Source of the DNA: Octopus vulgaris
Taxonomy: Eukaryota
NCBI GenBank assembly: GCA_951406725.2
Contig: OX597832.1
Span: 13,578,001 to 13,642,000 of the forward strand
Reading direction: 5' to 3'
DNA: 64,000 bases
Below, piece by piece: positions 8,537 to 59,463 of this stretch (the stretch's first letter is position 1; each line of letters begins with the position of its first letter). The notes beneath the pieces are model-generated. The model was given only the letters and a program-made list of their open reading frames with translations, made no database searches and was not told the origin of the DNA. The position numbers and the translations under genes were made by a program.

Positions 8537-8745
8537 AAGTTAATCCCAACGAGAAAACGCAAAAAAACACAACAACGCGAGGACGTGGAACAAATATAGT
8601 ATTATTGGACGCTCAGGAAAGAAGGGAAGAAATAGGATTTAACGTTTCGAGCGGAGCTCTTCGTCGGAAACATAGGAGAAAGAAAGATCCCGAGAAGGGA
8701 AGACAGAGGAAAAAAAATCGCTAACGGTACACACGAGGTCATAGC
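8537..8745 (-). mobile_element. Short PLE pseudo-LTR-like module with minimal hammerhead-like motif (8637-8671)
   Basis: Minus: GTTT-CCGACGA-A-GAGC(TCC)GCTC-GAAA-CGTT-AAAT. The 3' end runs into (TA)n at 8519-8536. Confidence 0.55.
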
Positions 8746-9599
8746 TCCAGGATGGTTATAGTCTAATGACTGAAACATGTGATATATATATATATATATA
8801 TTGCGTATATACATTATTTTACAAATAGTGTGTTAAAACAGATTTTCTTATAAAACGTGGTGGTCATTTCTTGCGCTGGCAAAATATACCCGCGCACTAC
8901 ATATCTGTTCTACATTTCAGGCTTATTCTTGTTCTTATTTGATGCCTTTTCTCCAGAACTCTTTCGTCATGCATCCAGCGACCTCTTCAGCAACTCTCCA
9001 TCCCATGTGTTCCCTGTTCTGTTTATCCCATTCTGTTTTTCTGTGGTCTGTATCCTAATATGCTCATCCGTTTGAGCCTGTATCTCTGTGTGAGTGTGCG
9101 TGCGTTTACTATGTATGTTTTGTGTGCGTATAGGTTTGCTTACAATACTCTTTGTATGTGTTCCCGATATTTATTTTTTTCAAAATTTATTTACTTTCCT
9201 ATCTATTTCACCCATTTTGCCTTAGATATGTGTATGTTGTGTTTTTGTATATATTATACTCTTTCTATCAAATACAAACGGTATAGCAAGCAAACCTATA
9301 TATACACTCAGAACACATAGAAACGCATACACTCACACGCACACACACACACACACACACACGCACACACTCATACACACGCACATACGCGTTCGCACAT
9401 ACTCAGAGTAAAACGCATGCGTAGATAAGGATAAATACCATAGAAAGACAGAATGGATTAAGCAGAAAAGGAAGAGTCACGTATGTTGGGGTGAGGAGGT
9501 CACTGCTTTAACTTTTACAGTGTGTTTCTTTTTCGGATAAATGATTCACTGATCCACTAACGATATATATATATATATATATATATATATATGTGTGTG

Positions 9600-11650
9600 T
9601 TATGCAGTTCTAAGTGACATAGGATGCTACAAAACCTATTAATACCCATGTTAGTAAATGATACCGTCTACGAAAAAAGTTGAAAACTAGAAACCACAAA
9701 ATACAATGAAAGGTCTTGTGTGCTTGATTCCTGTACTTGGAAAAATCTGACAAACAAAGAAATAGATTATATCACAAATTTCAAATGTACTCTTAGTCTT
9801 TTCTAAAGAAAAAATAAATAAACGCGCCCTTTTTAAAAACTTAGCCAGGTTCATGGGCCCGGTTTCCCGGTTTCTATGGCGTATGTGTTACCTAGCTGCA
9901 CGGGACGCCAGTCCATCGCAGCGTTACTCATTTTTGCCAGCCGAGTGGACTGGAGCAACGTGAAATGAAGTGTTTGATCAAGAACACAACGGGTCGCCCG
10001 TTCCAGGAATCGAAACCACAATCTTACGATTATGATGCTGACACCCTAAACACTAAGCCTCACGCCTCCACAGTCTTTTCTAAGGCTTACCTAAAATACT
10101 AAAGAGTCAGTTAATTAATGAAGCCCGCAAATAACCACCAGTTATACACATACACATCAGTTAAAGTTAATCCTTTTAATTGCTGGCCCAACGTGTGAAA
10201 CTCACTGACGAAGCAAATTTCTAGATATACCACATAAATCCCATTTGAAATATATCAAAAGGTTCATTAGAGACGATCTAGAGATGCTAAACCACCCACG
10301 AAAAACAATTATTGAAGAAATAATCATGGTTTCCTTCGATGTTGTCAATCTATACAGCAACATCCCACAATAGATGGAATCTAATTCTGGCTGGATAATT
10401 ATCACGAAGAATTTCCGGAGCGCATGAACGGGGACTTTATTGATGTAACTTTAAAATTTATCTTCTAGGGCAATTACTTTCTATTTCATGACACCCACTG
10501 CCAACAAAAATATTGAAATGTGATGGGAACAAATGCAACCTCAGTTCTTGCAAGCCTAATAATGAGATATTTAGAATTAACCAGTTATAGAGTATCACAA
10601 CAAAACGTGAATACCCATTCTACCATTATATAAGAAAAAGGTATTTGGATGACTGCATTATCATTTGTAATGACACCTTGTGAAATGTTTTGAATTTAAA
10701 TCAGTACAAAATAGTATAAATCCAAATATTCAACTTACAGTGAAGTAGATCAAAGAGTAACTCCCATTCCTTGATATTTTGATAAAAAAAGTCAACGATC
10801 AAATTCAAACCGATATCTGTTGTAAACCAACGGAGTCGAAGCAATATCTTCTGTTTAGTTCATGTCACCCGAAACAAATCAAAATAAATATTATTTTTAA
10901 TTTAGCGAAAATGATTTGCACAACAGCGTCTGATGCAAATACTCGGGGCCTCCGACTTAAGGACCGCTGAGGTACATTCATTGAACCACACAATCCACTC
11001 TCACTTATAGATGACGTGATTAAACGTGCTTAGAAGATAGATATCTAAATACGCAATGGAACGAAAAGACATTCTACACCCAAACCTATAATTACTGCCT
11101 TATATACCGACAGAAACCTCTAGAATACATGAGGTAGACAACACCATTACTCAAAATCTGCCAAAGCTCACTAGGGATCCAATGCTGACGAAAATTCTAC
11201 AAACACACAAATTTAGCAAAATTTAAAAACAACCCAAATCACTAAAAAAAAATACTGATAAAATCGAAGGTATACGCTACAACAACGAAAGCAATAATTG
11301 AAAAATGCGACGCGCAAGTTGCGGAACTTTCCCCAATCCACTGGAAGGTACCGAATTCCACTTCAAGCAAGATTCACAATTAAGACCTATTGCACCTGTG
11401 CATCCGAAAATTTAATTTGTGTGATAAATTTTCAGGATGTGGTGACAATTATATAGACCAAACAAGGATGTCATTTCGAGAACTACACAGCATAAGGAAC
11501 AGTCCTTGGACCTCGGATGACACTTTAGCGCTACGGAATATCTAGCAAGCATAAATTCAAATACAAATCACAAAATAACAGCTTTGTAGGAAACTAAGAT
11601 TTGTTGGCGTCAGTAAAAACAAATAAGTACATTTTGAAAATAAGCTTTAG
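9600..11650 (+). pseudogene. Degenerate Penelope-like retroelement (RT + GIY-YIG), related to 35771-37741
   Basis: Broken frames give LTNKEIDYITNFKC, GLPKILKSQLINEA, MVSFDVVNLYSNIP, YLLFSSCHPKQIKINIIFNLAKMICT, a Cys-rich linker ~11303-11340 and TCASENLICVI..GCGDNYI. Many stops and frameshifts. Confidence 0.85.
9807..10071 (-). mobile_element. tRNA-derived SINE, family C, inserted in the PLE
   Basis: Minus: GTGGAGGCGTGAGGCTTAGTGTTTAGGG...GGTTTCGATTCC...GCGATGGACTGGCGTCCCGT. Perfect 12-bp TSD AGTCTTTTCTAA at 9795-9806 and 10072-10083. Confidence 0.9.
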
Positions 11651-12944
11651 AAATTTTCCTCTCTGGCAAAGGTATTTACAAGAAAATCTCATTAGTCACA
11701 TCTCATCATCTCATAGCGACTGTTACAACTGTCTGTCCAACTCGCTCTCTCTGTCGCTGTCTAAGCCCCCCCTCTTTCTCTTTCTTTATCTATTTATCTG
11801 TCTATCTCACACAGATACACACATTTATCCGTCTATCTCATACAGTTGAACATATTTATCTGTCTATCTCACTCAAAAAAAAAAACACACACGCACACAC
11901 ACACACACACACATATGTATCTATGTATGAATGTACGTAAGTGTATATATATATATATATATATATATATATATATGCACGTATTCATATATATATATAT
12001 TTCTGTGTTTGTTTGATTATGCGTGTGTGAACTAAGGTAGCATATATCTGTCAATGTACAAACGCTCACTTATACAGATATGTATATATGTATGTGTATT
12101 TATATGAAATGGGCACATTGTCTACGAAACACAGAAAATTGGCAACGTTCTTGCGATATTTGTCAGAAAAATAATTATTAGATTTGAACATAGGATTTAT
12201 CGAAGATTAAATTTTGCCTGCATGGAAGAATGTTCCTAGTTTGATTTTAATGCAGATTTGTTTAATCTGTTAATATTCTTGTACTTATCATATAATCTTT
12301 TTTTATTATTATTATTTTGATTCTGTTCTCACTTTATATTTCATATATATTATTTATAAACTTCATACACATTTTGCCAAACGATTACGGATGTGCAAAC
12401 GCAGTATAATAAGTGCACATACGATTAATTCACCAGAGTGTACTCGTTTAATATAGAGATCGATACATTTTATTAGTAAGCACTTGGTGACTTAAGAGTT
12501 CGATTCTTTTATGCATAATCTCATCGGTTTATGTAATAGATGTAGTACGAAAAATAGCGGTTGTTTAAGAGAGATATATCGTAGTGCGTATAGAAGATTA
12601 ATACAAGTTACTACCACTTGAAATATATTTCTTCTTGAACAATAAACAGTTAGATAAATTTGAATGTCTTATCTGAGTGACATGAATAGCACGGCTGGAA
12701 AATTCAAACAGTTTGATTAGCATACTTCTTTCACTGTTAACATTCAATGTTAGATACACATTCTTCTTTCACTGTTGCCAACATACACAAGCTTGGAACT
12801 GTTTTGGACTAAGAAATTTGAAGTTTGTGTATTGTTAGTAACTAGCTACTATTTCTGTAATAATGAAAATATGTGCGGAAATTACTTTCCTTTCGTTAGT
12901 TCAAATCATATGCACTGTCATGTGTTACAATAATAATTTCAAAG

Positions 12945-58702: not shown

Positions 58703-59070
58703 AAGATATGGCTTTGTGGTAAGAAGTTTACTTCCAAACAACATTGTTAGAGGTTCAGTCCCACTGCGTTGCACCTTTGATGTGTATCTACTAATATAGC
58801 TTCGGGCTAACCAAAGCCTTACGAGTAGATTTGATTGACGGAAACTAAAAGAAGCCCGTTGTATGTTTGTATATATAGTATATATATATATATATATATA
58901 TATATATATATATATATATATATGTATGTGTGGGGGGTGTACCTGCGTGTGTGTCTAAACAACTACATATGTGTTTTTGTGGCTGTTTGACCCTTGTCAG
59001 CCATCACCGCGTGACAGCTAGTGCAGTTATGTTTAAGTCCCCGTTAACCAGCGGTTTGGTAAAACAGCCT
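58703..59070 (+). mobile_element. Diverged SINE family A
   Basis: ATGGCTTTGTGGTAAGAAG..GGTTCAGTCCCACTGCG..GACGGAAACTAAAAGAAGCCCG, internal (TA)n. Confidence 0.75.
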
Positions 59071-59281
59071 GATGGAAGAATAAAATGAATAAATTAATAG
59101 TCATACATACATACATATAGATAGAAAGATAGATAAATAGATAGACACACGTATATATATATATATATATATATATATATATATATAAATAAATATAAAT
59201 AAGCATATATACATTTATGTGTGTGTGTGTGTGCATGTATGATTGAGTTTCTGGATACAAACGATCGTATGTGTGTGCCAT

Positions 59282-59463
59282 GATAGATCACTAGCCACTA
59301 AACCTTTCTCTTTCTGTTTATGTTTGTTTTCTTTTTGTCGAAAAGCGTAGGCTCGAAACGTAGAAGTCTTTCTTACTTCTCTAGCGTTAAACTAATACAT
59401 CTGTTTGTTGTTTACACACCCGTCTTCGTCTGTTTCTTATTTTTATGCTTTGTAAATTCTCAC
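59282..59463 (+). mobile_element. Short PLE pseudo-LTR-like module with eroded hammerhead-like motif (59331-59366)
   Basis: CTTT-TTGTCGA-AA-AGC(GTAG)GCT-C-GAAA-CGTA-GAAG. Ends in (TA)n at 59464. A related tail lies in reverse at ~13430-13510. Confidence 0.45.

Follow-up and report, generated by a model that had tools for sequence, protein, structure and literature searches.

What are the eight hammerhead-like motifs that lie within 64,000 nucleotides of the Octopus vulgaris genome, and why do most of them run into tracts of (TA)n? The stretch, hereafter the window, covers positions 13,578,001 to 13,642,000 of the forward strand of contig OX597832.1 (assembly GCA_951406725.2). An earlier note on this DNA had proposed a diverse set of ribozyme-bearing, non-autonomous derivatives of Penelope-like elements (PLEs) that target or extend TA microsatellites. 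Our analysis argues that seven of the eight motifs are very probably hammerhead-like folds of type I that lie close to the 3′ ends of as many unrelated repeat families, likely copied by PLE proteins, with (TA)n as the likely target in six of them.

All eight motifs were present, and we name each by its position number in the note, which marks one edge of stem I: 8637 (−), 17613 (+), 17996 (−), 31432 (−), 37582 (+), 39519 (−), 55325 (+) and 59331 (+). The carrier sequences served as queries against the genome (2.8 Gb in 227 contigs); the best 40 candidates were scored per family, and 25–30 loci, numbered with an L below, were kept. A first look returned 2,144 genome candidates for 8637, 671 for 17613, 2,698 for 17996, 882 for 31432, 2,892 for 37582, 3,683 for 55325 and 2,294 for 59331. 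The type I hammerhead layout was kept in seven of the eight motifs, which sit in seven unrelated repeat families; as the note had suspected of most carriers, no pair among the eight matched by blastn at E<0.01. Alignments revealed a common core embedded in wholly different stems from family to family. Stems I and II pair and helix III is closed or palindromic in all seven families, with an A·C pair in 17996 and a bulge in stem I of 31432.

Among the aligned copies, the core was canonical in 23/25 (17613), 23/25 (17996), 20/25 (31432) and 21/25 (55325). The 37582 family carried U3–A8 in 30/30 copies and the 8637 family U4C in 27/30, a change that hammerheads tolerate, while 29 of 30 copies of 59331 had U at position 6. 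Four copies in the window depart from their family core by one change each: U4C in 17613, G8A in 31432, A9U in 55325 and C3U in 59331.

Seven of the motifs had been reported to lead into (TA)n, and in these the next (TA)5 indeed lay 44–194 nt from GAAA, compared with 2,097 nt for 55325. The window is AT-rich and holds 85 (TA)5 tracts, which corresponds to a chance of 0.21 of finding one within 250 nt. Against this background the proposed polarity gave P ~1e-4, a value to be read with the eye-picked motif set in mind, and 4/8 motifs also had a (TA)5 within 250 nt upstream. The other family copies extend the pattern: a (TA)5 lay ≤250 nt downstream in 28/29 copies of 37582, 27/29 of 8637, 23/24 of 17613, 18/29 of 59331, and 12/24 each of 17996 and 31432, but in only 2/24 of 55325, against a background of 0.15. 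At the true end of the family sequence, a TA or TC run was found in 19/24 (17996) and 18/24 (31432). Upstream, the corresponding counts within 250 nt were 19/29 (8637), 15/24 (17613), 13/29 (59331), 9/24 (31432), 0/29 (37582) and 0/24 (17996), the two zeros being due to long element bodies. In an unbiased sample of 20 fixed-position 10-kb stretches (200 kb in all), motifs of families other than 55325 had TA downstream in 6/7 cases and upstream in 5/7.

Three of the families are linked to coding sequence. The 37582 carrier (35541..37741, +) is a 5′-truncated, broken coding PLE with predicted reverse transcriptase (RT), thumb and GIY-YIG regions and an inverted, tail-bearing arm at its 5′ side, set between TA at 35477–35540 and 37742–37777. 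Its minimal hammerhead (37582..37621, +) has U3–A8 in place of C3–G8, a 7-bp stem I, a palindromic helix III and a GUC site. The window copy matched RVT_1 (E 2.5e-8), and the Pfam GIY-YIG match fell below its cut-off. Translations of L017, L021 and L029 from this family, and of L087 from the 59331 family, contained RT followed by a C-terminal GIY-YIG with CCHH; the CX4CxxC linker present in all four is deleted in the window copy of 37582, whose inverted arm carries DKG. The 59331 carrier (59276..59463, +), located between TA tracts, appears to be the 3′ pseudo-long terminal repeat (pseudo-LTR) of an older family of the same type, with a minimal hammerhead-like motif at 59331..59366 (+); L087 joins it to a decayed open reading frame (ORF) of the 37582 type. 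By the motif definitions of PMC8557442, both families are predicted to be Neptune/Nematis-type PLEs. Naiad was rejected for 37582, as its endonuclease is C-terminal and it carries DKG rather than the Naiad DKA. Two further decayed PLE coding remnants lie in the window: one at 10182–11500 (+), heavily decayed and 63% identical to that at 36–37 kb, with no ribozyme recognised after it, and a Neptune-type one at 42412–43900 (+), 67–71% identical to the 59331-linked ORF of L087.

The 17613 carrier (17503..17678, +) is a 5′-truncated pseudo-LTR between two TA tracts, from a young family with copies 98–99% identical. Its type I hammerhead (17613..17663, +) has a 6-bp stem I, a stem II closed by U·U, a 4-bp stem III and a GUA site. 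Immediately downstream of the same sequence lie an open 722-aa ORF in L233 and the start of an ORF in L112; in L192 the sequence is joined to an endonuclease C-terminus through a 2.2-kb repeat-rich 3′ untranslated region (UTR). The L233 ORF bears the Hydra-clade marks DKT, RWR, a CxCX5C linker and CxxC-E-N-CxH, and by the motif definition of PMC8557442 the family is a putative Hydra-clade PLE. Pfam detected no RT in this ORF, yet 766 homologues exist, many with PF26215. An exact-pattern search for a second ribozyme downstream of the ORF found none in L233 or L234. Because the 3′ UTR in L192 consists largely of microsatellites, the Hydra-type family would spread microsatellite DNA inside itself. 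L192 also contains, at 1141–5987, a 4.85-kb palindromic insertion of this family with arms 97% identical.

Three other families are non-coding. The 8637 element (8537..8743, −; family length ~205–235 nt) is flanked by (TA)n at 8519–8536 and 8782–8801, and its minimal type I hammerhead (8637..8671, −) has 4-bp stems I and II, the U4C core, a palindromic helix III and a GUU site. Its 5′ end is nearly fixed: the reference 5′ end was the start of 10 of the 13 incidental hits that began in the first 20 nt (17 listed), and the longest copies, at 8/8 loci, begin at one place with unrelated sequence upstream. Many 59331 copies likewise begin within ~20 nt of one point, giving a short preferred form of ~190 nt. 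In both families the preferred 5′ ends lie ~90 nt upstream of GAAA, near a hexamer that resembles an initiator; if a solo pseudo-LTR carried its own start site, it might behave as a short interspersed element (SINE).

The 17996 carrier (17844..18406, −) consists of a non-coding unit of ~495 nt plus a partial upstream copy, a partial tandem of retrozyme-like form, with a type I hammerhead at 17996..18048 (−) that has a canonical core, identical in 22/25 copies, and a GUC site. It converges with the 17613 element on one (TA)n tract (17683..17843), which both face. Across the family, head-to-tail units of 489–498 nt without an ORF were found, and 10/25 loci held at least two same-strand motifs, five of them ~490–510 nt apart. 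Contigs of four presumed-RNA runs covered most of the unit; since ends, strand and circles are not visible in them, they are evidence neither way. The 31432 carrier (31255..31529, −) is a fragment of an older (~80–85%) non-coding partial-tandem family, and its hammerhead-like motif (31417..31466, −) has a long stem III. Partial tandems of this family lacked an ORF, with offsets of 533 and 598 nt, and 1/25 loci had two motifs, 469 nt apart. ORF neighbours detected by tblastn were rejected as parents of 8637, 17996, 31432 and 55325 on account of wrong orientation or position.

The family that does not follow TA, 55325, is of a different kind. Its full element of 310–390 nt comprises a tRNA-like head, an (AAT)n linker, the hammerhead, a 9-nt repeat and a 33-nt tail, and 13/40 scored matches to a full copy reach to within 5 nt of both its ends. 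The window copy (55229..55436, +) is truncated, with an inverted tail-bearing arm, a forward 3′ part, an 11-bp target duplication and no TA; its minimal hammerhead (55325..55370, +) has 5-bp stems I and II, a palindromic helix III and a GUU site. A second copy (6115..6405, −) retains the tRNA-like head and (AAT)n linker with the hammerhead deleted, and a tail-only fragment lies at 1733–1816. In the alignment, heads begin at one common base, 7 nt before an A-box-like run, and box-like columns are visible; exact A boxes occurred in 2/12 and B boxes in 6/12 copies, two of the 12 being headless. The sense strand lacks TTTT in 11/12 copies, unlike five other carriers, and A4 runs occur in 12/12. 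Among 56 units collected (two duplicates dropped, some mere linker fragments), 25 were inverted, and in 25/25 of these the tail stood on one arm only, an arrangement shared by L192 and by the coding PLE of the window. Target duplications of 7–15 bp flanked 17/25, against 5% by chance. Of these inverted units, 22/25 came from loci picked by searching with a query that was itself inverted or full-length; among the units of the fixed-position sample, 2/6 were inverted and 1/6 had a head. An inverted copy of the 3′ end at the 5′ side, with a tail of 30–40 nt at one end only, is a PLE hallmark (PMC8557442, PMC11167929). Together these features suggest that 55325 is likely a PLE-mobilised SINE, short, non-coding and high-copy. 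In fuller terms, it is probably a tRNA-derived RNA polymerase III (Pol III) SINE that numbers in the tens of thousands, took up a PLE pseudo-LTR with its hammerhead and reverse-transcription start sites, and would be moved by Penelope-like enzymes instead of a long interspersed element (LINE).

A less probable alternative is that 55325 is not one SINE, either because a headless PLE end repeatedly enters the (AAT)n tail of a separate tRNA SINE or because an ordinary LINE moves the element. Many copies do lack the head (5/6 units in the fixed-position sample), and the flanks examined contained no autonomous PLE partner. The tRNA scores are weak: cmscan gave 11.9 bits (E 4.9) in one copy and nothing in another, ARAGORN called a tRNA in 3/12 copies at a relaxed threshold only, one of them Ser-like, and at default settings it called none in seven SINE loci nor in 215 collected sequences. 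All three phage hits by blastn were tRNA genes, weak at E 0.01–2. In L181 (1297–1403) and L222, the 108 nt that precede the head are common to both and include, ~30 nt before the head, an AT-rich TATA-like run; this shared stretch is possibly the flank of a source gene. What speaks against this alternative is that all nine heads found continue into the linker, that full sequences have one constant body junction, and that 7–15 bp duplications enclose head and body together in L181, L186, L211, L218, L219, L220 and L225; the one-arm tail, the near absence of sense TTTT and the universal A4 runs point the same way. In the open literature, outside which most subscription journals and Repbase lie, no tRNA SINE moved by a PLE came to light, and the family may already carry a name.

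Several observations weigh against the picture of seven PLE-copied hammerhead families. Folding energies are unremarkable (z −2.5 to +0.7) and do not single the motifs out, and no hammerhead appeared among the best 150 of 250 Rfam matches in the window, which were microsatellite-driven microRNA and similar noise. In the 59331 family, U occupies a core position that normally does not vary, although stems and the palindromic helix III are present, and the link of this family to an ORF rests on a single locus, L087. Clade calls are based on motifs and not on a tree, and the family samples are the best-scoring 24–30 loci, not random copies. Searches by tblastn of ~1.5-kb flanks gave no parent ORF for 8637, 17996, 31432 or 55325. 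The evidence is assembled sequence, from which cleavage and transcription are predicted. Finally, TA beside 8637 is commoner on the 3′ side (25/27) than on the 5′ side (13/27; p=0.004, three duplicate or unparsed loci omitted) and longer there (medians 22 vs 9 nt), as a templated or slippage-added tail would also give.

This last asymmetry bears on a reading that we hold to be rather unlikely, namely that the elements themselves make or lengthen (TA)n, either because read-through RNA carries (UA)n or because slippage of the telomerase-related RT adds TA, so that insertions seed microsatellites. In its favour, TA of at least 10 nt stood on the 3′ side only in 13/27 copies of 8637 and on the 5′ side only in 1/27. 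A ribozyme-free SINE-like segment showed the same polarity, with TA after its 3′ end in 12/25 copies vs 2/25, so the polarity is not specific to the ribozyme; two other ribozyme-free repeat segments showed none (3/23, 3/32). In 59331, TA was found 3′ in 10/20 and 5′ in 7/20, which is not a significant difference (p=0.41; ten loci unparsed). The observation that favours a target over an extension comes from the two coding families tested, 37582 and 17613, both of which have two 3′ ends, with or without a 40–70-nt tail. TA followed the short end and the tail end in 15/15 and 15/15 copies of 37582 and in 10/10 and 14/15 of 17613, while in L233, a full-length 17613-family copy, the tail continues into the 722-aa ORF with no TA between. 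Copies of 8637 also occur within (TAGA)n and (TATG)n, bordered left and right by the array itself, and 3′ tract lengths (median 22) are near those of the genome sample (median 17, mean 24). A nick within the tract would make 3′ TA obligatory and 5′ TA optional. An anole PLE has two internal reverse-transcription starts and AT-rich nicking (PMC11167929); the two 3′ ends with TA after both match this behaviour, so the TA most likely comes from the target. Thus, the (TA)n beside six families is likely an insertion target rather than an element-made tail. The ribozyme-free SINE-like family present at window 35206–35370 in turn receives 8637 insertions at its TA ends (L047), and in L037, L079 and L240 8637 copies sit at the TA ends of 59331- or 31432-type copies, forming chains of ribozyme elements.

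The earlier note had asked for a comparison with shuffled sequence, which came out in favour of strict descriptors and hardly in favour of loose ones. An untuned strict type I descriptor matched three times in the window vs 0.17 in 12 local dinucleotide shuffles, and a family-tuned descriptor four times vs 0.05, whereas the loosest gave 20 matches vs 10.9 and lost the signal. The untuned matches include one at 8990 (−), with a 3-bp stem I, that was absent from the note's list. In the 200-kb sample, the tuned descriptor matched four times vs 0.25 when shuffled, and two of the four represent new families (L199 near 158, −; L210 near 116, +), one with U3–A8. Family homology identified 13 distinct motifs in the same sample (14 rows, one duplicate), which extrapolates to ~180,000 family motifs genome-wide (range 97,000–311,000); strict matches are estimated at ~56,000 (95% range 15,000–143,000), and the ranges are wide because the sample is only 200 kb. 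The window's seven family motifs in 64 kb do not amount to a significantly higher density than the 13 in the 200-kb sample (p=0.19). That the motifs and their TA neighbours are mere chance in an AT-rich, microsatellite-rich genome is highly improbable: the many TA tracts and barely enriched loose descriptors leave it some room, but seven motifs are repeated across high-copy families, where their distance to the element end is fixed and the stems differ around a common core, and the 16- to 80-fold excess of strict matches over shuffles helps refute it for seven of eight.

Chance does fit 39519 (39520..39580, −). Its carrier returned one genome candidate, itself, and nhmmer found no relatives in 946 kb of sequence. 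The motif is single-copy and has mismatches in stems I and III, and a pattern for the core alone matches ~5 times in a shuffled window vs 14 times in the real one; 39519 is therefore likely due to chance. An inverted repeat pair of 173 bp, 95% identical and 2.3 kb apart, occupies 39737–39909 and 42239–42411, one arm beside this motif and the other abutting a PLE remnant. At 44418–45750, an abundant ribozyme-free SINE-like repeat forms a head-to-tail array of 184–217-nt units and has many dispersed copies in the window.

The earlier observation as a whole is thus partly confirmed. Its picture of hammerhead-bearing, mutually unrelated, PLE-type and (TA)n-tied carriers holds up, apart from 55325 as a different kind of element. 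"Non-autonomous" suits 8637, 17996, 31432 and 55325; 37582, 17613 and 59331 are 3′ ends of coding families, and 39519 belongs to no repeat. The one attachment to a coding PLE is directly visible for 37582 and is joined by 17613 (through L112, L192 and L233) and 59331 (through L087). Between targeting and extending TA, which the note had left side by side, TA after both 3′ ends favours the former.

These results are consistent with a model in which zinc-finger-linker endonucleases of Neptune/Nematis- and Hydra-type PLEs would nick (TA)n and reverse transcription would begin at internal sites 40–200 nt beyond the ribozyme; such start sites would place the ribozyme a short, fixed distance from TA. 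The 5′ junction would lie within that same TA tract or at its border, and most copies would be 5′-truncated or non-coding passengers. The 55325 family would have arisen when a Pol III SINE gained a PLE 3′ end, and a PLE with no preference for TA would move it in trans. The ribozymes may cut multimeric or read-through RNA, probably as dimers, and most single genomic copies are likely inert.

The ribozyme–spacer–TA pattern is known PLE biology in new families, and the tRNA-headed family, which stands outside this pattern, is the newest part of the findings. What is added is scale and variety: ~100,000–300,000 ribozyme-like copies from seven families, with coding, retrozyme-like and SINE-like elements among them. 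If confirmed, the tRNA-headed family would widen the kinds of enzyme known to move SINEs. Such a SINE–PLE partnership would also provide a naturally occurring minimal PLE template of 330 nt, present in enough copies to probe the role of the ribozyme in vivo. The ribozyme is dispensable for insertion in vitro (PMC11167929), and with 55325, a small and defined RNA, one could ask if PLE hammerheads cleave in vivo.

Among known systems, the minimal PLE hammerheads described by Cervera and de la Pena in 2014 (PMC4209133) resemble ours in the short stem I, the extra base after A9, the palindromic helix III, the covariant U3–A8, a published PLE variant, the thousands of solo copies and the many families per genome; they differ in number, with 2,000–9,000 there vs ~56,000 strict matches here, counts obtained with different descriptors and genome sizes. 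A (TA)n preference has already been described for Neptune, Naiad and Hydra PLEs, octopus included (PMC8557442). With the Neptune/Nematis PLEs of that paper, 37582 and 59331 share the C-terminal GIY-YIG, the CX2-5CxxC linker, the pseudo-LTR hammerhead, an inverted 5′ arm with tail, (TA)n targets and, in 37582, DKG. They are set apart by the unusual core base and many ~190-nt copies of 59331, and Neptune and Nematis are not separated here. Nearly all Hydra families target (TA)n, an octopus one included, and ribozymes of the 17613 layout are given in the supplement of PMC8557442. The 17613 family agrees with Hydra-clade PLEs, including Hydra-1_Obim of Octopus bimaculoides (supplement files S1, S2), in DKT, RWR for RWK, the CxCX5C linker, CxxC/CxH around E and N, (TA)n insertion, the U·U-closed stem II and the 4-bp stem III. 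Its ribozyme sequence differs from the Hydra-1_oBim motif, and some copies have the 2.2-kb microsatellite-rich 3′ UTR (L192).

Short non-autonomous Penelope elements have been mentioned (PMC6685494), and non-LTR retrozymes have been argued to be PLE-derived (bioRxiv 10.64898/2026.07.22.740005). Like the latter (PMC7229834 and the same preprint), 17996 and 31432 are non-coding and AT-rich, with a type I hammerhead and partial tandems or dimers; unlike them, their units are ~500 nt rather than ~300–390, usually come as a full unit with a partial one, and end in (TA)n. The nearest known element to the 55325 family is Sm-alpha of schistosomes (PMC2770079, PMC6765202). Sm-alpha is described as forming tandem multimers, whereas 55325 has its head upstream of the ribozyme, Ser-like in one relaxed ARAGORN call and not Gln, and occurs as solo or inverted insertions with a PLE tail. 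With Sm-alpha and Sj-alpha it nevertheless shares a tRNA-related head joined to a hammerhead in a short, high-copy element.

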